Origin: a bacterium
Lineage (GTDB): Bacteria > Lernaellota > Lernaellaia > Lernaellales > Lernaellaceae
Length of the DNA stretch: 64,000 bases
Assembly (NCBI GenBank): GCA_036725605.1
Contig: DAIMDW010000026.1
Span: forward strand, 832-64,831
Direction: 5' to 3'
Made by a program: the position numbers and the translations under genes. Below, in pieces: positions 2,040 to 36,263 of the stretch (position 1 is its first letter; each line of letters opens with the position of its first letter). The notes below the pieces were generated by a model that worked only from the letters and a program-made list of their open reading frames with translations, was not told the DNA's origin and did not search any database.

Positions 2040-2224
2040 TCCGGTGTCGCGACTTTTTTGTCGACAACCAATTCGTCGGACGCGGAAATGCGACGAAGCA
2101 CCCCATTCACCAATCGTCCGCTACTGCATAACAACACGGCATAAGCAATAACGACAATGAGTAAATGAAAAACATTGATCGGCGGCATTGCGGCTCTCCA
2201 ATCACCGGGAATAAAGACTCTCAA
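2033..2224 (-). CDS. Small hydrophobic membrane protein.
   Basis: 63-aa ORF with a hydrophobic core (LLIVVIAYAVLLC). It is adjacent to the HTH gene on the same strand. Confidence 0.3.
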   Translation of the reverse strand: MRVFIPGDWRAAMPPINVFHLLIVVIAYAVLLCSSGRLVNGVLRRISASDELVVDKKVATPEW

Positions 2225-2837
2225 TTGCCTTATGCAATCGATCTTCCATTATTATTATCTCATAAGCTCCGATTGCCCTCAAGCTGGCGGACACTGCGGG
2301 TTGGCTGATGCCCAATCGCCCGGCCACCTCAACCTGATTCTCCATTTTTTGATACAAACGAAAAATCGCCATCTGTTTTTCTGTCCACTTCGCTTGTATC
2401 GACAAGAGAAGATTGATCTGGTTTTCCACCAGCCGATCCACCTGGCCCCGATCGCATTCGAGGCCGAACGGCAGCATCGAGTCCTTCAATTCCGCCATGA
2501 TATCGGCGGCACGATGAAATGCCGGCCCGTCCATCGCCGCCACATCCCGCGAGGCGACGCCGACGTCGATGATCCCTTCGACAACAACATAACGCGCCCT
2601 GAAGGGATGAAGCGTTTGCGCGATCTTGCCAACCAGCGAATACAAGAAGGTCGGCCGTATGGTCACCAAACCGAACTCGTCTTTCCCTTTGATCATTTTA
2701 AAGGGCGCTTTGAGGTCTTTGCGAAATTCCCTGTTTATCTCTTTTTTTATGGACGCCAATTTATCCAACAACGGATCGATTTCACCTGTTACTTTTCGCG
2801 AGGCAATCACATCGCCCAACAAAACCAATGCTTTCAT
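2202..2837 (-). CDS. HTH-domain transcriptional regulator, SatD-family-like.
   Basis: N-terminus MKALVLLGDVIASRK with a C-terminal helix-turn-helix (QVEVAGRLGISQPAVSASLR). The overlapping plus ORF 2175..2852 has no motifs. Local GC is lower than the flanks. Confidence 0.5.
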   Translation of the reverse strand: MKALVLLGDVIASRKVTGEIDPLLDKLASIKKEINREFRKDLKAPFKMIKGKDEFGLVTIRPTFLYSLVGKIAQTLHPFRARYVVVEGIIDVGVASRDVAAMDGPAFHRAADIMAELKDSMLPFGLECDRGQVDRLVENQINLLLSIQAKWTEKQMAIFRLYQKMENQVEVAGRLGISQPAVSASLRAIGAYEIIIMEDRLHKAIESLYSR

Positions 2838-4382: not shown

Positions 4383-6044
4383 CTAGTACTTCATCGCCCA
4401 GATCTCGCGACGGAAATCCATGTACATGACTTCAAAGGCCAGGACCTTGCCGTCCGGCGAAAACACGGGATTCTTTTTGAAGGGATGGCGGGCCGTATCC
4501 AACCGGTGCAAATCGCTGCCGTCGGCGTCGACGACAAAGATGTCGGAAACGTAATTTTTGTTGGCCGGCACGAACAGGCTCATGCCCGACGGCATGCCGG
4601 TCGCCGGTCCGTCGACCGATCCGGTCGGCGGCGGGAAAAAGCCCTCGAAGGCCAGCGTCTTGCCGTTGGGCGCCCAGCAATACGCGCCGAACATCTCGTA
4701 TTGGCTGCCCGGCGTCAGCAGCTTGACCTGATTGTCGCCGTCGCGGCTCATGACCACCAGCGTGTTGCCGCCCTCGCCGTCCTCGGTATAGGTCAGCGCG
4801 GTGATGCCCTGCCCGTCGGGCCTGTACATGGGCGTGCGGAAATCGCCGGTCTGACTCAGGCGAACCGTCGCGTCGGAAATGAAGTCGTAGCGGTAGATGT
4901 CCCCGGCGAACAAATAGCGCCGTTGGGCTTTCTCCGCGTTTTCGATGTAGTCGGCGTCGATATCGCCGCTGATCAAAAACCGGTACATCCACCGTTCCTT
5001 GGCCTGATACACCAATTCCTGTTCGGTGGGCGACCAACTCGGGTTCGAACAGTCCAGGTCGCTGATCCTGTTGTCGAGTTTCGAATCGACGTTGAGCAGA
5101 TACAGGCCGTTTTGCTCGGGCCGGCTCCAGTTGGTGCGCACATACGCCAGAAACGCGCCGTCGTGCGACCAGGCGAAATCGCGGCCGTCGACCAGCTTGC
5201 GGGGCTCGCCGCCGTTGATCGAAACCGAGTAAATGGTGTACGCACTCTTGCCGACGTCCTCGAACTGATAGGCGACATAGGTCAACTCGTCGTGTCGCGG
5301 CCGCCAGGCGAACTCCACGCCCTCGTTCCGGCCGGCGGCGATCTTCACCACGCGTTCGCCCTTGCCGCGCAACGTCTTGACCATCAGCCAGGTTTCGCCC
5401 TTGGGCTTTTGTCCGGTCAACTGATCGACCATGCCGAACAACGTAAAGCGCGGCTGATCGAGATAGGCGACCATCGATCCGTCGGAAGAAAATTTCGGGT
5501 TGATCGTCTCGCGGTCGCCCTCCACCGGAGCCAGGCAGAAGACGCCGGGCATAAACAAACTCTTGAGCAGCATCGCCGCCAGCACCACCGCCAACACCGC
5601 CGCCCCGATGCCCACGTAGCGCGTGTAACGCTTCGTTTGCGCCTGGCTCTTTTCGATCTGCATCGTGCGCGCCTTGTCGGGCGGACGACCGTCGACAAGC
5701 AACTGTAGCTTCTGTTTTAAAAACTTGTTGGCCGGATCCAGCGCGATCGCCTTTTCCAGGTACTCGACCGCGAACTCCTTTTGCTGCAGATCCTTATACA
5801 GATTGGCCAGTTGCAGGCAGACGCCCACCGCGTCCGGCCGTCGCTCGTGCTCGGCTTCCAGATCCTGCAACTGCTGCCGCACGGCCTCGGGCTGCGCTTC
5901 GATCATCTGCGCCTTGGCCCGCTTTTTGTCGCGCTCCTGACGCACGCCGGCCATCACCGCGCCGCATTGGGCGCACTCGGTCGCCGAGGGGGAATTGGGC
6001 GCACCGCAGGATTGGCATAGAACTGTTTCCTGGTCGTGGCTCAT
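4383..6044 (-). CDS. Zinc-ribbon / TPR / TolB-like (PD40) beta-propeller protein.
   Basis: N-terminal CxxC...CxxC (LCQSCGAP...CAQCGAV), TPR-like helices, one TM segment, then repeated WD/PD40-like blades (DG..LAY, SPDGK). It lies 13 bp downstream of the rhomboid gene on the same strand. Confidence 0.65.
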   Translation of the reverse strand: MSHDQETVLCQSCGAPNSPSATECAQCGAVMAGVRQERDKKRAKAQMIEAQPEAVRQQLQDLEAEHERRPDAVGVCLQLANLYKDLQQKEFAVEYLEKAIALDPANKFLKQKLQLLVDGRPPDKARTMQIEKSQAQTKRYTRYVGIGAAVLAVVLAAMLLKSLFMPGVFCLAPVEGDRETINPKFSSDGSMVAYLDQPRFTLFGMVDQLTGQKPKGETWLMVKTLRGKGERVVKIAAGRNEGVEFAWRPRHDELTYVAYQFEDVGKSAYTIYSVSINGGEPRKLVDGRDFAWSHDGAFLAYVRTNWSRPEQNGLYLLNVDSKLDNRISDLDCSNPSWSPTEQELVYQAKERWMYRFLISGDIDADYIENAEKAQRRYLFAGDIYRYDFISDATVRLSQTGDFRTPMYRPDGQGITALTYTEDGEGGNTLVVMSRDGDNQVKLLTPGSQYEMFGAYCWAPNGKTLAFEGFFPPPTGSVDGPATGMPSGMSLFVPANKNYVSDIFVVDADGSDLHRLDTARHPFKKNPVFSPDGKVLAFEVMYMDFRREIWAMKY

Positions 6045-6504: not shown

Positions 6505-6916
6505 GTTGTCGACGTTGCTTGTTCACCAGGCATTCGTTTTCGCTTCGTTTTGCAATAAAAGAACACTTTTTTTGCGAGATGTTCCGGCCGGTTTCCAATA
6601 TATTTTTCTAATTCGTCAACCTGACCTGACCTGTCGTCTCATCCGCGATATGCATATACATTTACATTGCTTATATTTTACTACTGCGACCATCCAATTA
6701 TATTTGTGTTCATTCGAGGCGTATTCGAATTATAATTCCACTCCTCGCCGGAAGCAAGAAATTTTTTCCACAGCCTCTTAATTTTTGATTATAAATCAGT
6801 AACTTTCGCCGCACCGCGGCATTAATCGCCTTATTTTTCCCCTGGATAAATTCCCGGGTTTCCATTAGGCTTAATCCCCCGCGAAAAGGCGGGAGGCACG
6901 AACAGGGGAAATCGTC

Positions 6917-9247
6917 ATGCGTAAGTTACGGCCGTTCCTGATTATATTGGTGTTGCTGGCCTCGGCCCAGGCGTTCGCCGCCGCGCCGCCGACCGGCCCC
7001 TGGCACGCGGACATCACCGAACATCCGCGCTTGTTGTTCTTCGCCGACGATCTGTCGACCATCGCCGGGCGGCTCGACCGCGAGCCCTACGTCACGCTGA
7101 TGACCCGCGTGCGCAGCCGGGCCAACGCTTCCTATAACGCGATCTTCGAGCCCTACGACGCCGGCCGCGAGTACTCCAACGCGAACATCGCCATCGCCGC
7201 CGCCTTCGTCGCCTGGATCGACGACGACGCCACGATGGCCGACAAGGCCGCGACGATCCTGGAACTGATGGGCTACGAGTTCCCCAACCCCATCTATATT
7301 TACAAACAGGACATTCACATCGCCGAAGCGCTGATGAATTACGCGGTCGCCTACGACATCATCGCCGGCACGGGGTTGATCGAGCCCACGCGCCTCACGG
7401 CGATCGCCACGCGCGTGACGACGATGGTCGAAAATCTGTACGCCGACTTTTTCGACACCCTGGCGATCTGGCAGCCGTTTTCGACCAACAACCATTCGAT
7501 CAAAATCTGCTCCGCGCTGGCCATCGCCGCGATGACCTTCAACCAGCACGACGACGCCAACAAGTGGTTCAACCTGGGCATGACCGAAACGGTCTACAAA
7601 CTCTTCGACGTGCAGATCGTCGAGGGCGCGATGGCCGAAGGGCCCTACTACGCCGCCTACAGCGCGGTGAACCATCTGCCGTTTTTCGTGATGTACAACC
7701 ACCTGGTCGGCGAGGACGCCACGCTGCTGCAGCGCGACTTCTGCCTGATCGGCCCCAACTGCACCTGGTCCGAGGTCGAGGTGGTCAATCCGGTGGACAA
7801 TCCCAAGCTCTACGACCAGAGCGAATGGATCGTGAAGATCCGCCTGCCCAACGGCGCCTCGCCGCCGATCGACGATTCCAACAGCGAAGGCTTCTTCAAC
7901 GGCCTGATGGCCCCGGTCTGGGGCGACGGCCTGCTCGCCTGGGAATGGCTGACCAGCCCGGCGTACCCCATGTTCACCCAGCACTGCGCCGATACGCTGG
8001 TGCACATCGTGGCCACCTATGACGACGAGGTGACCCTCACGCCGCCCGACGGTTGGTTCGGCCCGAACTTCCTGATGTATGACGCCGGTGAGGCGGTCTT
8101 CCGCAGCGGCTGGGGCGAAGACGATTCGTGGATGCTCTTCCTCGCCGAAAACGGCCAGGCGCGCACGGCCGGCGCGGGCCACGAACACGGCGACAACCTC
8201 TCGGTGTCGCTGTACGCGCGCGGCGAATCGCTCTTGCTCGACCCGGGTTACATCAAGTGGGAAGAGCACGCGGTCGTCATGCTCGGCAAGCACCACAACG
8301 TGCCGACCGTCGACGGCAACGCGCCGCCCGCGCCCAATCCCGTCATCCTAATCGGCGGCAACGACGCCTTCATCGTCGACGGCATGACCGACGCCGCCGC
8401 GCCCTTCGTCACCGGCCAGAGCGCCTGGAACGACGCGCAGTTCGAACGCACGGTGTTCTTCCCCGACAGCGACTACCTGATCGCCGTCGACGACATGTCC
8501 GCGGACGAAAACCACACCTACGGCGTGCTCTGGCACGGCAACGGCGGCGGCGACAGCGGCTATCCGTTCACCCTGCTGGCCGACGGCGGCTCGTGGCAGC
8601 CGGAAGACGCGGGCGTGGACGTGCACGTGAACTCCAGCATCGGCGACGTCGCGCTGGATACCTCGATCAACATTCACGCCTTCACCTACGGGCAGATGAT
8701 CGAGCACGTCAGCCTGTCCGCTCAGGTCGACACGCAAGCCAAGCGCGCGCGGATCGTCAGCGTCGCCACGCCCTATAATCTGACCAAAGAAACGCCACGC
8801 ACCGTCACCTGGGACGCCATGGACGCCGCCATCGCCGCGCGCATCGAAGGAACCGACACCGACTTCCTCTTCGCGCAGGACGTCCGCCGGGTGCGCAACC
8901 TGACCGCCGCGCAGACCGGCTCGGTCGACGTGTCCACCAGTGCGCGCACGCTGCTGCTGCGTACCGACGCGACCGCGAGCGCGGGCCACGCGTACGTCGA
9001 CGGCGGGCACTACCTCGCGCTGGGCGAACGGCAGGTGTGGCAGTTCGGTTACGACCGCCGCGTGTGGGTCGACTGGTCCGGCGACGCCTGGACCTTCTCG
9101 GTCGGCCCGGAAGGCGGCATGGTCGCGGCGTTCCTCTCCGCAATGCCCGACATCGACGCCGACCCCGGCGTGAAGTGGATCTATCAAAACAAAATGCTGC
9201 GCATCTGGGCTCCGGCCGACGCGAGCTTCACCGTCACCCTGGATTGA
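6917..9247 (+). CDS. Secreted polysaccharide lyase, heparinase II/III-like family.
   Basis: Signal peptide MRKLRPFLIILVLLASAQAFAA. Alpha-helical N-terminal half plus the GHEHGDNLSVSLYARGESLLLDPG motif typical of the heparinase-II/III-like C-domain. Confidence 0.7.
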   Translation: MRKLRPFLIILVLLASAQAFAAAPPTGPWHADITEHPRLLFFADDLSTIAGRLDREPYVTLMTRVRSRANASYNAIFEPYDAGREYSNANIAIAAAFVAWIDDDATMADKAATILELMGYEFPNPIYIYKQDIHIAEALMNYAVAYDIIAGTGLIEPTRLTAIATRVTTMVENLYADFFDTLAIWQPFSTNNHSIKICSALAIAAMTFNQHDDANKWFNLGMTETVYKLFDVQIVEGAMAEGPYYAAYSAVNHLPFFVMYNHLVGEDATLLQRDFCLIGPNCTWSEVEVVNPVDNPKLYDQSEWIVKIRLPNGASPPIDDSNSEGFFNGLMAPVWGDGLLAWEWLTSPAYPMFTQHCADTLVHIVATYDDEVTLTPPDGWFGPNFLMYDAGEAVFRSGWGEDDSWMLFLAENGQARTAGAGHEHGDNLSVSLYARGESLLLDPGYIKWEEHAVVMLGKHHNVPTVDGNAPPAPNPVILIGGNDAFIVDGMTDAAAPFVTGQSAWNDAQFERTVFFPDSDYLIAVDDMSADENHTYGVLWHGNGGGDSGYPFTLLADGGSWQPEDAGVDVHVNSSIGDVALDTSINIHAFTYGQMIEHVSLSAQVDTQAKRARIVSVATPYNLTKETPRTVTWDAMDAAIAARIEGTDTDFLFAQDVRRVRNLTAAQTGSVDVSTSARTLLLRTDATASAGHAYVDGGHYLALGERQVWQFGYDRRVWVDWSGDAWTFSVGPEGGMVAAFLSAMPDIDADPGVKWIYQNKMLRIWAPADASFTVTLD

Positions 9248-10591: not shown

Positions 10592-11317
10592 TCAATTATT
10601 ATCTCCATTATTCTGAATTAATTTTTTTAAATGGTAGTATAAAGGAGTTAACTGCCCTTCAGAGTCTAGCGGACCCATATATTTCCCAGCAAATATTTCA
10701 TAGCACCCTGTTCTTACGATACGAAAAAATAAGCTATCAATTTCATTTTCTGGTATATCAAGTTTAATCTTCAAATCATTTTTAAATTCACCCCAAATAA
10801 CATGTGATCGTTGAGCGTCATTTAGTAATTTATAATCTGTCAATCCATTATTTGGCTCTCTCGGATATTTTATTTTATAAACAGTTTCCGCCCTTGCTTG
10901 CCATTCATCAAGAAGAAAAAGTATGGTCAATTCACGATAGGATAAATCGTCAAGTATCGAAAGATAATCTTCAAACTCATTGACATCATTGATTAGATTT
11001 TCTACGACACTTGAAGAAAGAAGACGTGCAAAAAATCTGATTTTTTCACGTCTACGAGTATGAAGAACCGCTTGTATCGTTTTCATAAAACAGTGAAGAA
11101 AATCCTCTGACTCAATCAATTCTGGAGTTAAGTCAACGTTATTATTTATTAACTCGTCTAAAAACGCTTCAATCCGCTCTCTTGCTATTGTGTCTAATCG
11201 TGATGTTAACCATGCATCGATTGATGATGTGATTGGGAAAAAGGCCATAATTGCTTTTACCCAAGGGTTATCAGTGGGATATTTTTGAAGAAGTTTATCA
11301 AGAGCATCAATCATCAT
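10592..11317 (-). CDS. Hypothetical cytoplasmic protein encoded by an AT-rich island.
   Basis: 241-aa ORF in a roughly 1-kb stretch whose base composition is far more AT-rich than the flanks. No recognisable catalytic motif. It has its own terminator. Confidence 0.6.
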   Translation of the reverse strand: MMIDALDKLLQKYPTDNPWVKAIMAFFPITSSIDAWLTSRLDTIARERIEAFLDELINNNVDLTPELIESEDFLHCFMKTIQAVLHTRRREKIRFFARLLSSSVVENLINDVNEFEDYLSILDDLSYRELTILFLLDEWQARAETVYKIKYPREPNNGLTDYKLLNDAQRSHVIWGEFKNDLKIKLDIPENEIDSLFFRIVRTGCYEIFAGKYMGPLDSEGQLTPLYYHLKKLIQNNGDNN

Positions 11318-19230: not shown

Positions 19231-20466
19231 TTAGAAACATCCGCAGCCGGGCTCGTCGTCGTCGTCGCCATCGGTGTAGTCGTACGAATAGCCGGCGATG
19301 TATATGTTGTCCTCATCGTCGAGCACGGCGTCGGAAGCGAAGGCGCTATAGCCTTCGAACGGTTGATACGTCTCGTGCCACAGCAGTTCGCCGTCCGGGT
19401 TGAGCTTTAAAGCAAAGTAGCTGGTGTCGATGGGAATGGAACCGCTCGTTCGTCCCTCGTAACCGACGACAATTACGTTGTCATCGCTGTCGACAAGCAA
19501 TCTTTTTAAATTGATGTAATCTCGTTCATACCATTTTTCCCACAACATGTTTCCATTAGGATCGAGCTTGAACACCGCAATTGCGGAGTCGCCTTGAGAG
19601 GGGCCGACAATACGTCCCACACCAAGAACATTATTCTCGCTGTCCACTGATATCGACATAACCTCGAGGGAATCGAATTCATAGCTCCATATCAACGTAC
19701 CATCCGCTGAATATTTTTTTATATCGTACCAGGCAAAAATGAGATCATCGTTGAGGTCAATGATTTGAAGGTCAAAATTGAAAAAATCAACCGTAACATA
19801 CGACAATCTTTCCCCTTCCAAACTATGGAAAGCAATAAACAACATATCCTTAGTAATGTCTTCTTCGACAGACTCGGTCACGCCGACAATAAGAACCTGA
19901 TCATTTTTTATCTGCATTGAATACGCCATGATCGGCATATCGTTTTCTTCGGTAAACGACTTTTTCCACTGCAAGTCTCCCGAATCTGAATATTTGTAAA
20001 TTGTGTAATTATAGATAAACTCTCTCTCGCTTCGTATGTGACCGATCAGATAAATATTGTCGTCCGAATCGACTTGCACATCATAAAGATAATATTTTTC
20101 ATATTTTTTCACCCATCGATGCCCGTTGTCTTCGCTTCGACTTTCGATGAATTGTATCTCATTATAATAATTTATATAATAATAGTTACCTTCCGCGTCT
20201 GTTTTTAAATTGAACGCCGTAAAATCATCATGCCAGCGTTCGTTTCCGGACAGGTCGTATTGAGTAAGCATTCCGCCTTCGACAAGATATAAGTGACCTA
20301 GTTTGTCGATAATCAAGCTTGAATCCAAGCTACCGGAATTGTGATCGATATCCGAATTTTCCCATAATATTTCGCCGAATTCTGAATATTTCAGAACTAC
20401 TTTGCTATAGGCAAGGGACACCGTCGGCACCAGCAAAAGACAAATGAAAATCAACCATTTTTTCAT
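19231..20466 (-). CDS. Secreted repeat protein with a PQQ/BamB-like beta-propeller, encoded in an AT-rich island.
   Basis: Signal peptide MKKWLIFICLLLVPTVSLA. At least 5 repeats of the D/N-G-x-L-W motif (YDLSGNERW, YSDSGDLQW, YSADGTLIW, LDPNGNMLW, LNPDGELLW). Acidic C-terminus ending DDDDEPGCGCF. Very AT-rich relative to the flanks. Confidence 0.7.
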   Translation of the reverse strand: MKKWLIFICLLLVPTVSLAYSKVVLKYSEFGEILWENSDIDHNSGSLDSSLIIDKLGHLYLVEGGMLTQYDLSGNERWHDDFTAFNLKTDAEGNYYYINYYNEIQFIESRSEDNGHRWVKKYEKYYLYDVQVDSDDNIYLIGHIRSEREFIYNYTIYKYSDSGDLQWKKSFTEENDMPIMAYSMQIKNDQVLIVGVTESVEEDITKDMLFIAFHSLEGERLSYVTVDFFNFDLQIIDLNDDLIFAWYDIKKYSADGTLIWSYEFDSLEVMSISVDSENNVLGVGRIVGPSQGDSAIAVFKLDPNGNMLWEKWYERDYINLKRLLVDSDDNVIVVGYEGRTSGSIPIDTSYFALKLNPDGELLWHETYQPFEGYSAFASDAVLDDEDNIYIAGYSYDYTDGDDDDEPGCGCF

Positions 20467-31454: not shown

Positions 31455-32141
31455 TCACTTAAAGAAGTAGCCGGCCACGCCGCCGACGGCGAACCACAAA
31501 ACGATCTGCCCGACGATCAGCGCGATGCCGCGGCCGTCGTCCGGAAAGACCTCGCGGATCGTCATCCGGCCGGTGCGGATCGCGGAGATCGCGCGCCAGT
31601 AGTTGCTCAGCGCGACGACGAACGCGGCGGCGATCATCGTGACCGACAGCCAATCCGGACGCGTCGCGACCAGGTTGACCTCCCACCAGGCCCGTGCGAA
31701 ATCCCACATCCCCAGGCCCAGCAGGCCGCCGACCAGCAGCGGGGTGATGCCCAGGTCTTCCCAGGCCGTGGCGCCCTCGCGGTTGCGCGTGAACAGCAGT
31801 TGCGCGACGAAGACGAGCACCAGCGCGACGGCCTCCAGCAGCATCTCTTCGAGGAAGAAGTTCCAGAGCGTCCCCTGTCCGGCGAACTGCCGCGCGCCGA
31901 CGATCACGGGCGGCACGACGAACAACCAGCGCGCCTTCGCCCGCGCCGGCTCGGTCCGCGCCGCGAACAGGCCGAGGAAGAGAATCTGATACACCAGCAG
32001 CACCACCCACCCCAGCAGCATCGCCAGCCCGCCGCGCCCGCCGACCGCAAACACCGCCACGTACCCCAGGTACGGCAGCACGGCGTAGTAGCCCGCCTGG
32101 ATGGTGCGAATCAGCGAAAATGGATGGGAAGTCTCTTCCAT
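31455..32141 (-). CDS. Integral membrane protein with about 6 TM helices, function unknown.
   Basis: Strongly hydrophobic 228-aa ORF with GC-rich codon usage matching the host background. Confidence 0.55.
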   Translation of the reverse strand: MEETSHPFSLIRTIQAGYYAVLPYLGYVAVFAVGGRGGLAMLLGWVVLLVYQILFLGLFAARTEPARAKARWLFVVPPVIVGARQFAGQGTLWNFFLEEMLLEAVALVLVFVAQLLFTRNREGATAWEDLGITPLLVGGLLGLGMWDFARAWWEVNLVATRPDWLSVTMIAAAFVVALSNYWRAISAIRTGRMTIREVFPDDGRGIALIVGQIVLWFAVGGVAGYFFK

Positions 32142-32551
32142 GGACCGGTTATAACGGGAAGCCGCAACGGAGACAATCGCGGTGGGCCGGGCGTGGCTTC
32201 AACCGCCGTAGTGCGTCACGCAGAGATCTTCGATTTTCTCGGAAAAGTTGCCGACCGAATCGGCGATCTCGATGTCGAGTTTCATTTTTCATCATTCTTA
32301 ATCCGCTTTGCGGATACTGCAAAATGGGCCGATGGTCGATCGAGAACATCGATCTGCTCTGACAAACCGAAAAGGAGTTTCCAAACACAGGTCTCTAATA
32401 ACCATTAATATTAGAAGACGAACTGTAAGACAAGGGATTGACTTTTACATATGATCCAATATTTTAGTGAAATTTATTGGGTTGATTATAAATTGATTTA
32501 TATATATCATATTCTCATATCTAGACACATTCAGATGGGAAGGAATGAAAC

Positions 32552-34066
32552 ATGTTTAAAAGGCGTTTATTTTTACGCATATTAGGCGGACTATTTATCA
32601 TAATTGGAGCTTATCTTTGGTTTACAGATGACCGATCATTTTCGTTGAATATTTTTTCTTTTACAATTGAAATCCCAATTTACTTCTTTGTAGCAACTTT
32701 AGGATTATTTCTAGTCTGGGAGCCAAGTTTGATATTTGATTTTCTGGGAAATACTTTTAATTCCGAAAAGATTCTTTCATTTGCGCAGAGGATAGGAGTA
32801 TTTGGTTTAACTGAAGAAAATCCTACACCAGTACAACTCGCAAAATCATTGAAAAGGCAGGTATCAATAGATAACTCTAAAACAGTTTTTTTTGTGCTTA
32901 TTTTGGTTTTTGGAATGTTTTCATTTGTTCCAAAGATTGTCTCAGATAAAATTTCCGATGACGATTTTAAGGACAACTCAAAACAACTAGTAACATTAAT
33001 TCAAGAATCTAGGGTCGACTTCGATTCGGCAGACATGTTCAGACGCTTCATTTTGAACAACAAAAATATATTGTCATCAGAAAAATATTCAAGTTCGGAT
33101 ACGGGAAAGTTATTTTCTTATTTAGAGCGACTTTTTTCACCAGAAATTAGCGACCAAAGAAAATTTGATGAAATTCTAGCAAGAGAAATCTATGGGGAGA
33201 TAAAGGAAAAAGTAAATGCCGACACTCAATTAATCGAATCAGGCCTTTTCGAGATCCCAAAATGTTTAAATGATCCTGTAGAGATGCGATCTACACTTCT
33301 TACTTTTTTTGCTATTGTATGTCAAAAACAAGGGGGGCATGGAAAGCACCTAGATCCATACATATATGCACGACAACTTTTAAATATTGCTTTCAAGGAA
33401 CTTCCTCAAAATGCCAAAGCGCCAGCAACTTATAATGCAATGGGAGTTAATTACGCATCCACATTTAAAAGCTATGGACAATATTTAGAAAGATTTTCTC
33501 GTAATGAGCCAATGAGAACAAAATTTTGCGATGCTATCGGCGAAAAAAAGGCGCTCACACGATTACAACTAGTAAGAAAATCACTTATGTATTTTGAACA
33601 AGCCTTTAAACAGAGCACTAACAACATGATGGAAGCGCGTTATAGAAATAACCACACAGATATGATGATCGAGATTCTTTCATCAGCGCACCTTGATAAT
33701 ATAAACTATTTTAAGGAGATAACCGATCGTGAAGATGAAATTTTTTTAGAAAAACATGTGGCACGACATGGTAACAAAGAAACTCTTTCACGTATTCTTG
33801 AAGAATTAACTACTGAAGTGAATATTGCATTGAAGCTATCGAAAGAACCAGAGATATTTTATACAAGAGCCCAATTATATTCTGTTGGATACAAGATAAA
33901 TGTATCACAATCCTTAAAAATTCAACCTTGGGCCAATGAAACATGGGTGCTAAATAAAATTCATGATGATTTGCAGATCGCAAAATCACTTGGATTGCAA
34001 GAAGAACTTTTTAATATTGACGCATTGAAACGCCTACATGTGGTATCGGATCGACCACTTTTATAA
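32552..34066 (+). CDS. AT-rich-island gene 1: membrane-anchored protein with 2–3 N-terminal TM helices and an about 380-aa helical cytoplasmic domain of unknown function.
   Basis: Hydrophobic segments LFLRILGGLFIIIGAYLWF, IPIYFFVATLGLFLVW and TVFFVLILVFGMFSFV. The rest is charged and helical with no known motif. AT-rich codon usage. Confidence 0.65.
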   Translation: MFKRRLFLRILGGLFIIIGAYLWFTDDRSFSLNIFSFTIEIPIYFFVATLGLFLVWEPSLIFDFLGNTFNSEKILSFAQRIGVFGLTEENPTPVQLAKSLKRQVSIDNSKTVFFVLILVFGMFSFVPKIVSDKISDDDFKDNSKQLVTLIQESRVDFDSADMFRRFILNNKNILSSEKYSSSDTGKLFSYLERLFSPEISDQRKFDEILAREIYGEIKEKVNADTQLIESGLFEIPKCLNDPVEMRSTLLTFFAIVCQKQGGHGKHLDPYIYARQLLNIAFKELPQNAKAPATYNAMGVNYASTFKSYGQYLERFSRNEPMRTKFCDAIGEKKALTRLQLVRKSLMYFEQAFKQSTNNMMEARYRNNHTDMMIEILSSAHLDNINYFKEITDREDEIFLEKHVARHGNKETLSRILEELTTEVNIALKLSKEPEIFYTRAQLYSVGYKINVSQSLKIQPWANETWVLNKIHDDLQIAKSLGLQEELFNIDALKRLHVVSDRPLL

Positions 34067-34075
34067 GGAGATACT

Positions 34076-34909
34076 ATGAATAAAAATCAGGTTTTTAACG
34101 ATACTGTTGAACAAATCCAGCATGATGCCACCAGGCAAATGTTGGCATTAATTCATGGGATATTTATTGTAGCTGACGGGAAAAAAGTGAATAATCCGAA
34201 TGTATTAACAGAGCAGATAAATGAAGATTCGATACATCGTAATTTTGAGAAAATAAAAAATAAATTCATCCACAATTATGAAGTCTTTCCCATATTTGAT
34301 TTTATTTTCAATGGTATTGAAAGATTAAATTTATTATTTATGAACGCTCAAGGATTTTTTCGCCACAAAGAAGAGTATGTTCTTGAAATAAAGAAAATAA
34401 GTGTAACAGATTTGTTATTAGACGTGATTGATTTTTATTCTGGCATTTCGGCGGTTCAAAATATTGATATTTATACTGAGTTTTCAGATACACCTCATAT
34501 TTTAGCTGATTACGGTTTACTTTTTAGAGCATTTTGTAACATTATAGATAATGCTATAAAATATAGTTACTCCAAAGATTCAGCAGATCGTAAGAGGTAT
34601 ATTTATGTTACATGTAGACGACACTCCCAAATGGGACACATAATTATTGAAGTGTCATCATATGGTGTGAAACTTGAAGATGACGAATTGCTGAATTATA
34701 AAATGTTCCAATATGGCGTAAGAGGAGTATATGCGTCTGATCGAGATCGCCACGGGAGCGGGATTGGACTAGCTGAAGTAAAAAGAATTATTAATAGTCA
34801 TGGTGGAAATGTGGATATATTTTTTTCAAAAAAAGAAGGAGAGCCAGGCGGTGTTACTGTATTGAAAGTCGTGCTACCACCTGAAAGTGGAATTAGAAAG
34901 AAGGAATAA
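34076..34909 (+). CDS. AT-rich-island gene 2: soluble histidine-kinase-like ATPase (HisKA_3-like H-box plus HATPase_c) with no sensor domain.
   Basis: Candidate H-box QIQHDATRQMLALIHGI, N-box FCNIIDNAIKYS, G-box DRHGSGIGLAEVKRIINSHGGNV. No TM segments. It starts 10 bp after gene 1. Confidence 0.65.
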   Translation: MNKNQVFNDTVEQIQHDATRQMLALIHGIFIVADGKKVNNPNVLTEQINEDSIHRNFEKIKNKFIHNYEVFPIFDFIFNGIERLNLLFMNAQGFFRHKEEYVLEIKKISVTDLLLDVIDFYSGISAVQNIDIYTEFSDTPHILADYGLLFRAFCNIIDNAIKYSYSKDSADRKRYIYVTCRRHSQMGHIIIEVSSYGVKLEDDELLNYKMFQYGVRGVYASDRDRHGSGIGLAEVKRIINSHGGNVDIFFSKKEGEPGGVTVLKVVLPPESGIRKKE

Positions 34910-35340
34910 TGAGTGAAGACTTTATCACAAACATCAAATTCGCTGCAGATAAAAACGATTTATCACTTACTATATTATGGCTCGACGATGACACCATAGG
35001 AGATACGTTCTTTTTAGATAATGTGCAGGTAGTTACAGCAAAAAGTTGTAAAAGAGCTGATGAAAAATTACATAAAGATGTTGTTTTTTCAGGAGCAGTT
35101 ATTGATATTATTGTACCTCAAGAAGGATGGGGGGAACATTATTACAAATATGCAGGATTGGAATTCGTCAGGTATTTAAGAAAAACATTCGATGATGAAC
35201 TTAAAGTATTTGTTTTGACAAATCAAATTCCATGGGCTTTAAATAAGGCTGATATTATAAACGCAGGAGCAAAAAATGTGCTATTAAAAAAAGATTGTGG
35301 ATTGCGCAACTTATTACCATGTTTTTTCAGTAATGATTGA
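34909..35340 (+). CDS. AT-rich-island gene 3: receiver-like (REC) single-domain protein, possibly degenerate.
   Basis: ILWLDDD (acidic pocket), AVIDIIVPQ (phospho-Asp position), KVFVLTNQ (Thr) and NVLLKKD (Lys) sit in REC-like spacing. Its start overlaps gene 2's stop (ATGA). Confidence 0.5.
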   Translation: MSEDFITNIKFAADKNDLSLTILWLDDDTIGDTFFLDNVQVVTAKSCKRADEKLHKDVVFSGAVIDIIVPQEGWGEHYYKYAGLEFVRYLRKTFDDELKVFVLTNQIPWALNKADIINAGAKNVLLKKDCGLRNLLPCFFSND

Positions 35341-35359
35341 TTGAAAGGATTAAAACATA

Positions 35360-35707
35360 ATGTGTAGAATTTTCATAAGACTTATTAACAAATTTCGTCC
35401 ACGTAAGGGATATTTAAAACGAATTGAGAATTATGAAGAGAAATTTTCCCATCATGGTGAACGCGTGTCGTTAGAGGAAACTGCAAGTGTTCATGTAGCC
35501 AAGCTTGTTCTTTTTCGCAATCCAGAATTCAGGTTGGCCAGTTTACAAACATTGGCTGAACAGGGCTGTCAAGAATGCTTCGCCCCAGCGTTAAAAGATG
35601 CAATCTCAAGTGCAAAAAAATGGCCTCACGAACCTATAGAACACCATGCCTGCCATGTTTTTAATGTTTTAAGCACATACAACAAAGCACATGATAAAGA
35701 ACTTTAG
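35360..35707 (+). CDS. AT-rich-island gene 4: small helical protein of 115 aa, function unknown.
   Basis: It lies 20 bp after gene 3 and has a Cys/His-rich C-terminus (CQECF...HEPIEHHACH). Hpt-like or HEAT-like roles are both speculative. Confidence 0.4.
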   Translation: MCRIFIRLINKFRPRKGYLKRIENYEEKFSHHGERVSLEETASVHVAKLVLFRNPEFRLASLQTLAEQGCQECFAPALKDAISSAKKWPHEPIEHHACHVFNVLSTYNKAHDKEL

Positions 35708-36263
35708 AAATAATGTTTTGTAAAGTCTACGTAATTCATTTGATACGTAAAAGATAACATCTCTCCATACAGTTCACTTTTTCAGGCGATAATTATTTGA
35801 CTCTTCGCTTTTGTTTGTTTCGCCAGTTCGATGGTTTTAATCGGTTATCGGCCCTGATTACGACAATTACGGTAGGGGGAGTTAATAATTGTTGTGATTC
35901 AACTCGGCACCCAACCCCTCTTGCAGCACCTCGACCGATTGATTCATCAAATGTCTTGCGCGGCACAATGTGAATAACTCACTGAGGATTGTACAACTGA
36001 AGAATTCGACAAAACCATGGGAACACAGACAATCGATCAAAAACACCACCGATAATTAATCGGCAAGATGGCAACTAACTCACTTACCTCCTATCTCAAA
36101 TAATCATTTCCATTTCCCGCCCGCCTCCGTTACCCTTTTCACAGCGCCCGGCCTTTCACAAAACTGCGCGGAATCGTTTAAGAATTGGACAGTGCGAAAT
36201 GGAAATGTGGAATAACTCTGTGTTGTTGCGTCGGTTTTTTGCCGCGGTGCGGCGATTTTCTCA

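Follow-up and report, generated by a model that had tools for sequence, protein, structure and literature searches.

An AT-rich four-gene kinase-receiver cassette in a Lernaellaceae genome, a candidate phosphorelay-type conflict system

Detocs is composed of a histidine kinase with TPR-type repeats (DtcA), a stand-alone receiver (DtcB) and a receiver-effector protein (DtcC) carrying a PNP or other cell-killing domain (bioRxiv 10.1101/2023.01.24.525353). In Ambrosia, a kinase-regulator pair controls restriction-modification-like genes, and its gene content is unrelated to that of the locus described here (bioRxiv 10.1101/2025.09.30.679545). We analyzed a 64,000-nt stretch of a bacterial genome of the family Lernaellaceae (assembly GCA_036725605.1, contig DAIMDW010000026.1, positions 832 to 64,831; hereafter the window) and within it an AT-rich island of four genes, g1 to g4, encoding a membrane TPR-like protein, a histidine-kinase-like ATPase, a divergent receiver and a small adaptor-like protein. 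In three-component systems such as LiaFSR, a kinase without its own sensing domain shares one operon with a membrane protein and a receiver. We are highly confident that the four genes form a dedicated kinase-receiver signalling system. An earlier note, made from the sequence alone, had proposed an undescribed two-component-like accessory or defence cassette, and our analysis supports this core reading, with a defence role suggested by domain associations only.

The island is the deepest GC dip within the window: it spans 3.5 kb at about 33% GC, and the host genes on either side have about 65%. In 400-nt segments, GC is 0.28-0.39 across approximately 32,400-35,900 and 0.60-0.69 on both flanks. 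GC content at third codon positions (GC3) is 0.23-0.30 for the four cassette open reading frames (ORFs) versus 0.87-0.91 for rnfA, rnfB and the upstream host gene, which agrees with the description of a one-third G+C stretch in a GC-rich host. The four ORFs are co-directional and coupled, exactly as reported before:

32552-34066, plus strand: gene 1 (g1), 504 aa
34076-34909, plus strand: gene 2 (g2), 277 aa
34909-35340, plus strand: gene 3 (g3), 143 aa
35360-35707, plus strand: gene 4 (g4), 115 aa

The junctions needed correction. The gaps given as 10 bp and 20 bp measure 9 nt between g1 and g2, with an AAGGAG Shine-Dalgarno ahead of g2, and 19 nt between g3 and g4; the g2/g3 junction is not an ATGA overlap and reads TAATG, with an overlap of 1 nt. 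Shine-Dalgarno-like sites (AAGGAG, GAAGGA, GGAAGGA) accompany three of the cassette genes, and g4 has only AAAGGA.

Homologues were sought by word-indexed searches over 5.8 billion proteins and by a full HMMER scan with g1 over 1.84 billion representatives. The word-indexed searches with g1, g2 and g3 returned the same organism only. The full HMMER scan with g1 retrieved 47 distant relatives with 25-34% identity and E-values down to 1.7e-67, most of them full length (500-545 aa). One g2 'homologue' of 89% identity (P0003/L007) was rejected because it lies on a chimeric contig, identical over 518 nt. Two metagenome contigs (L004 at 4539-4760, L007 at 519-742) are exact copies of the window up to a point where the match breaks off, and their ends are probably chimeric products of assembly.

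Unrelated metagenomic genomes also contain the four genes together and in this order, the outcome for which the earlier note had proposed to look. The full order g1-g2-g3-g4 is found in five independent cassettes (the window, L009, L010, L015/L016 and L018/L019), which are all the loci with enough sequence to show a whole cassette. On five shorter contigs (L012, L013, L020 and the contigs of P0039 and P0022) a g2-type gene comes directly after g1, and g1 is directly followed by a g2-type kinase in 10 of the 13 independent g1 loci. All four proteins align with their homologues at 25-34% identity and keep the invariant residues. With homologues that share conserved motifs and stand in the same order in other genomes, the four ORFs are real genes and not chance ORFs. 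Homologues inside a host core operon were not found, the cassette is covered by no model in Pfam, NCBIfam or PADLOC, a scan of representative genome contigs for the g1 motif gave no match, and a literature search found no paper describing this cassette. The family is rare and apparently undescribed, the latter as the earlier note had suspected.

The second gene encodes a soluble protein in which, as first proposed, no transmembrane (TM) or sensor domain was detected. It matches the Pfam families HATPase_c (3.1e-13, aa 146-269, above the gathering score) and HATPase_c_5 (2.8e-8). Its best PDB matches are catalytic ATP-binding (CA) domains of histidine kinases such as MprB and HK853, with residue alignments to MprB and 7zp0. 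Both the N box (NxxDNA[IV]KYS) and the G2 box (GxGIGLAE) are conserved in the family. The G1 box is unusual in having [S/N]-[Y/F]-G-V-[G/K/E] instead of D/N-x-G-x-G. The ATPase half of the earlier HisKA_3/HATPase_c assignment therefore stands. The HisKA_3 half was rejected, as HisKA, HisKA_2 and HisKA_3 match none of the 8 g2-family members at E<=5; the N-terminal family profile also finds no match in the PDB, kinases included. Within the N-terminal 100 aa, His16 is the sole invariant His, and its conservation makes it the candidate autophosphorylation site.

34511-34882, plus strand: CA domain of g2, from Pfam coordinates
34121-34123, plus strand: codon of g2 His16, invariant in 9/9 family sequences

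At NCBI, g2 is named 'HAMP domain-containing sensor histidine kinase' (HPQ71044.1), and HAMP and HisKA are undetectable there. In PADLOC, g2 and its homologues match the PDC-M43B models, at 7.5e-14 for the window protein.

On the strength of its family alignment, we accept g3 as a divergent receiver (REC) domain that stands alone. Searched by itself, the g3 sequence has no match in Pfam or PDB, so that the receiver assignment of the earlier note holds for the family and fails for the protein taken alone. Response_reg matches 3 of 5 g3-family members (E<=1), the best at 2.9e-5 and 24.6 bits, under the Pfam cut-off of 30.2 bits. A profile of three g3 sequences finds only receiver domains in the PDB (17/17 matches) and a profile of five sequences nearly so (17/18), with E-values of 0.012-1.7. 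The catalytic positions D26/D27/D28, D66 and K127 are invariant, while the beta-4 position is T/S in four sequences and G in two. In HMMER alignments Asp66 falls on the phospho-Asp position of receiver domains, and a 9-residue insertion (VPQxGW...) behind this Asp is conserved in the family.

34984-34992, plus strand: Asp26-Asp27-Asp28 of g3, acidic pocket at the beta-1 end, invariant in the five cassettes and the L048 fusion
35104-35106, plus strand: Asp66 of g3, predicted phospho-acceptor in the motif V[IV]D[LI]xVPQ, invariant
35287-35289, plus strand: Lys127 of g3, invariant

An hhalign comparison of the g3 family with one E. coli CheY sequence (an approximate query) was not significant, and the single-sequence AlphaFold2 (AF2) model, with a predicted local distance difference test score (pLDDT) of 39.7, was unusable. 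The protein is deposited at NCBI as hypothetical (HPQ71045.1).

The fourth gene encodes a small helical protein with a domain of about 75 residues and an invariant core, E-x-R-x4-Q-T-L. Homologues stand at the same position in four other cassettes. Neither the protein nor its family profile finds a match in the PDB, and the protein matches nothing in Pfam, NCBIfam or PADLOC.

35525-35557, plus strand: core motif E56-x-R58-x4-Q63-T-L65 of g4
35492-35494, plus strand: His45 of g4, kept in 6/7 sequences

The earlier note had offered two roles for g4, Hpt-like or adaptor. We rejected the first: g4 has no Hpt match in Pfam or PDB, and the TIR-fused variant L048 has Tyr in the position of His45, which weakens an Hpt role. 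The second fits, because the g4 domain either travels with g1 (L049) or sits between receiver and effector (L048). On this sequence evidence, g4 appears to define a new helical adaptor-like domain.

The first gene belongs to an unnamed family of membrane-anchored TPR-like proteins. It has no match in Pfam, NCBIfam, PADLOC or PDB sequences, its family profile has none in the PDB, and no relative has a meaningful Pfam family match. An AF2 model built from a 42-sequence alignment (pLDDT 91.8, predicted template-modelling score 0.83) predicts TM1 at aa 2-25, a beta-hairpin at aa 29-42, a kinked TM2 at aa 43-69, a loop of about 40 aa, and TM3 at aa 108-132 within a 60-residue helix (aa 93-152). Family-averaged hydrophobicity likewise shows three segments (9-21, 42-66 and 115-129); of the 2-3 TM helices first counted, three is thus the number that the family conserves and two is not. 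Pro42, Gly51 and Pro58 are invariant in a 30-sequence alignment.

32555-32947, plus strand: membrane module of g1, from AF2 secondary structure and family hydrophobicity
33008-34033, plus strand: all-alpha TPR-type solenoid of g1, aa 153-494

The solenoid is the best-conserved part of g1, with the motifs PY[LI]QARQLL, ARYLNNxVDL and FTRAQLYS. In the model, this C-terminal domain shows fold similarity to solved TPR proteins, including RRNPP peptide receptors; a Foldseek search against PDB and BFVD gave no significant match. The solenoid is predicted to face outside the cytoplasm, given an N-terminus rich in Lys/Arg (K/R), three TM passes, and an N-terminal fusion to a cytoplasmic ATPase in one relative (P0015).

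Variant architectures in other genomes tie these parts to immune modules. L048, a locus without g1, encodes a g2-type kinase (307 aa) followed by a 380-aa protein consisting of g3, g4 and TIR_2 (hhalign E 1.6e-31 for REC and 1.5e-4 for g4; 5.7e-21 for TIR_2). By tblastn this fusion is colinear with g3 and g4 of L009, and its TIR part matches PADLOC defence TIR models and the retron-TIR NCBIfam model. In L011, the 1005-aa protein P0015 starts with an AAA ATPase of the KGGVGR-motif type (9.7e-34) that includes an nSTAND1 segment, and its C-terminal half is a complete g1 module with the TM helices. Its gene directly follows an FxsC TIR-like gene (1.2e-41). The g1 module of P0015 lies where STAND proteins carry sensor repeats. 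In L049, kinase and receiver are absent beside g1, which is followed by a 314-aa protein (6867-7811, plus strand) whose first 80 residues are the g4 domain (hhalign 95.6%, E 1.1e-8). The C-terminal part of about 220 aa (residues ~90-314) has no match in Pfam, NCBIfam or PDB and may be an undescribed effector or sensor domain. L014 has a solo g1 beside toxin-antitoxin genes. Across L014, L015 and L049, neighbours of the family include toxin-antitoxin or AbiEii genes.

Sigma-54-type activators adjoin the cassette in two unrelated loci, L010 (4139-5743, minus strand) and L048 (5536-7083, plus strand), and the L048 island lies between an NtrC-like regulator and a PAS-HAMP kinase. The sigma-54 consensus TGGCAC-N5-TTGCW was found in no locus.

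The relatives also look transferred. The cassette is about 10-30 GC points below its host flanks in most loci with visible flanks:

L010: cassette GC 0.50-0.51, flank GC 0.59-0.67
L015: cassette GC 0.52-0.56, flank GC 0.66-0.73
L018/L019: cassette GC 0.49-0.53, flank GC 0.65-0.72
L048: cassette GC 0.49-0.51, flank GC 0.66-0.74
L014: solo g1, GC 0.33-0.40, flank GC 0.41-0.51
L009: cassette GC about 0.50, flank GC 0.52-0.59, a marginal difference only

The cassettes of L018 and L019 are the same (99.8% identity) and the genes upstream of them differ, being radical SAM/TetR in L018 and MarR/DinB in L019. The L049 scaffold resembles a plasmid and encodes ParA/CbiA, Rep3 and a Phd/PIN toxin-antitoxin pair. 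Together with the foreign composition of the island, these observations uphold the horizontal acquisition proposed earlier, and judged by sequence the four genes are one horizontally acquired cassette. When L018 4845-5250 is compared with L019 4951-5290, the sequence common to both loci starts about 1.1 kb ahead of the g1 homologue, and this point possibly marks the left end of a mobile unit.

Taken together, the most likely reading of the cassette, to which we give about even credence, is a phosphorelay-type conflict system directed against phages or mobile elements, the defence part being suggested by the domain associations of its relatives. We infer the direction of signalling, the phosphorylation sites and the topology of g1 as follows. 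The three-TM protein g1, with its solenoid predicted outside the cytoplasm, would be the signal-binding module, and its TM bundle and short cytoplasmic loop would control the sensor-less g2. The kinase would autophosphorylate, presumably on His16, and pass the phosphoryl group to Asp66 of g3, whose receiver g4 would couple to an output. In relatives this output may be the TIR domain fused behind g3 and g4, or the unknown domain behind g4. The four-gene form encodes no enzymatic effector, so its output would be the g1 membrane module or a host target. A fuller version of this reading, which we put forward tentatively, is an undescribed immune family with an outward-sensing membrane TPR-like receptor, a His-Asp relay, an adaptor and interchangeable outputs (TIR, the unknown domain or the membrane module), in which the receptor may alternatively be mounted on a STAND-type ATPase.

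Several observations weigh against a conflict system of this kind. The window cassette has no recognizable effector. Its neighbours are housekeeping genes (purH, purN, an ECF sigma/anti-sigma pair and rnfABCDGE), so the local context is not a defence island, and we rejected the earlier suggestion that it was one. Only about 10 independent loci enter the comparison. The scanned viral contigs contained no family member and yielded only generic kinases via the CA domain, and 185,579 representative genomes yielded a single locus, L048 from an Acidobacteriota metagenome-assembled genome, which is the variant without g1. No PADLOC model matches g1, g3 or g4, and the PDC-M43B match of g2 is confined to the generic C-terminal ATP-binding domain (profile positions ~180-320 of 347). 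Kinase activity of g2 is not assured, as the protein has no HisKA-type N-terminus and its G1 box is without the usual Asp. The topology of g1 is uncertain, K/R density after TM3 being not lower than before it. Finally, g1 could be the effector rather than the sensor, since L048 drops g1 and gains a TIR domain and L014 has g1 alone.

The main rival explanation is accessory environmental or envelope sensing without immunity, which is possible although we regard it with some doubt. Here g1 would sense an extracytoplasmic ligand, e.g. a peptide or an envelope cue, g2 would phosphorylate g3, and g3 with g4 would bind a host protein and so modulate it, like CheY, DivK or Spo0F, with no cell-killing effector. 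Single-domain receivers commonly work by protein-protein contact, as CheY and Spo0F do, and the TPR fold of g1 resembles RRNPP peptide receptors, among them the Rap proteins that bind Spo0F. The four-gene form without an effector domain, the housekeeping neighbourhood in the window and the sigma-54 activators of L010 and L048 all fit such a role. This explanation does not account for the variants that fuse cassette parts to TIR and KGGVGR/nSTAND ATPase modules. Moreover, the cassette has no fixed host neighbourhood and a transferred look in most loci, which would be unusual for a regulator needing host-specific targets, and the sigma-54 promoter consensus is missing from every locus.

It is also conceivable, but unlikely, that the roles are reversed: g2 or its N-terminus would be the intracellular sensor, and phosphorylated g3 would act via g4 to trigger g1, whose TM hairpin would collapse the membrane potential as in abortive infection. 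The presence of TIR in L048 where g1 is absent, as if the two were interchangeable outputs, is what such a system would show, and so is L049, which pairs g1 directly with a g4-domain protein and has no kinase or receiver. TM-effector variants of Detocs have been reported (bioRxiv 10.1101/2023.01.24.525353), and Pro and Gly are conserved in the TM1-TM2 hairpin of g1. One family member also weakly matches a SAVED-fused 2TM effector domain, but this match (E 0.02) is not significant. In L011, however, the g1 module lies where a STAND-type ATPase carries its sensor, and this ATPase is already partnered by TIR; the best-conserved part of g1 is the solenoid and not the TM region; and in L014 a solo g1 persists without regulators.

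That the cassette is a rearranged member of Detocs is very improbable. It shares with Detocs its TPR-type repeats, its histidine kinase and, in g3, a stand-alone receiver corresponding to DtcB, and the L048 relative carries a REC-effector fusion (REC-gene4-TIR). Nevertheless, two defining features fail, and we therefore do not count the cassette as Detocs. TPRs and kinase form one protein in DtcA but are separate here, with no TPR in g2 and the repeats in a membrane-anchored g1; and the window has no second receiver fused to an effector as in DtcC. L048, which has such a fusion, is without a stand-alone receiver. In addition, g4 has no Detocs counterpart, and of the PADLOC v2.0.0 models only PDC-M43B matches; none named for Detocs matched the cassette, in a library whose Detocs content was not confirmed. 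Least credible of all is a silenced or decaying insert whose ORFs are functionless in this host: the composition is extremely unlike that of the host, which would favour xenogeneic silencing, and host-trained gene callers miss g3 and g4 on some contigs, but the four ORFs are intact and tightly coupled, keep every family-invariant residue, and lie in an island that is identical across six assemblies from different samples, save one 3-nt difference in L004, while a neighbouring host gene varies.

These six contigs, the ones on which exact g2 was found, all represent one genomic locus and thus give no independent context, and the island holds no sequence diversity usable for estimating the ratio of nonsynonymous to synonymous substitution. 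In L005, a strain variant, 21 substitutions and two indels fall within 150 nt (31876-32027) of a multi-TM host gene (31455-32141, minus strand), and none in the adjoining 4.4-kb island. The 31876-32027 cluster may be explained by a recombination tract or by hypervariability of the segment.

The island is bordered by two further features:

32390-32551, plus strand: left island edge and g1 leader, where GC drops from 0.57 to 0.30, with a GGAAGGA Shine-Dalgarno
35708-36100, no strand: AT-moderate island tail, where GC climbs gradually from 0.39 to 0.47 up to the rnfA leader

Sigma-70-like hexamers in the g1 leader (32438-32465 and 32482-32510) are candidates, in numbers not above shuffled expectation. 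Directly 3' of g4 there is no terminator-like site. The tail contains short unsupported ORFs only and no Rfam family, and the Rfam search found no known RNA family at the island. Neither direct repeats nor terminal inverted repeats bound the island, and there is no tRNA within the 64-kb window.

Three other patches of low GC content lie elsewhere in the window. At 10592-11317 (minus strand), a second orphan AT-rich gene of 241 aa (GC 0.33, GC3 0.24) sits in another GC dip; it resembles the cassette in composition, lacks any match in Pfam, and may have entered as another small insert from a comparable donor. At 2202-2837 (minus strand), a patch of GC 0.50 encodes a 211-aa SatD-family protein (PF16264, 4.6e-14). 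At 19231-20466 (minus strand), a gene of GC 0.42 encodes a 411-aa protein with a signal-peptide-like N-terminus and weak matches to beta-propeller repeats.

If the cassette does act in defence, the few phosphotransfer-based systems such as Detocs and Ambrosia would be joined by an architecture whose sensor spans the membrane and probably faces outward, and by two new protein families, the TM/TPR-like receptor g1 and the adaptor domain g4. The natural variants offer ready predictions as to which part senses and which part kills: a kinase with a REC-adaptor-TIR protein, a STAND-type ATPase-receptor beside FxsC-TIR, and a receptor with an adaptor joined to an unknown domain. More generally, word-indexed searches of billions of proteins can report as 'orphans' genes that belong to conserved, mobile systems.

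With RRNPP receptors (Rap, NprR, PlcR, AimR), the likeness of g1 is that of a generic TPR fold, at 9-15% identity and with no sequence-profile relation, and these receptors are cytoplasmic and without TM helices, unlike g1. With the PADLOC candidate PDC-M43, for which a literature search found no paper mentioning it, the cassette shares only the match of component B to the CA domain of g2; no cassette component matches the other PDC-M43 models.

Like LiaFSR-type systems, the cassette encodes a sensor-less kinase next to a membrane protein and a receiver. It differs from them in that its receiver has no DNA-binding output, the DHp region of its kinase is unrecognizable, and g1 and g4 fall in no described family; it is also mobile, rare and linked to TIR/STAND modules in its variants. 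The STAND or NLR-like conflict systems, whose TPR sensors are C-terminal and which have TIR partners (FxsC TIR with a KGGVGR ATPase/nSTAND1), are connected to it through L011, which carries the complete g1 module as the C-terminus of the ATPase, and through the TPR-type solenoid fold of g1. The TM helices between ATPase and repeats in L011 are unusual for STAND proteins. Moreover, the window cassette has no NTPase or TIR, and its transmission would be phosphotransfer and not NTP-driven oligomerization.

The closest described system is Detocs. Unlike it, the cassette has a TPR-like protein with three TM helices, predicted outside the cytoplasm, a minimal kinase with no recognizable HisKA, a single receiver and the extra adaptor g4. 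Both are accessory phosphotransfer cassettes in which TPR-type repeats and a histidine kinase go together with a stand-alone receiver. Effectors vary modularly within each family, and the two may work similarly.

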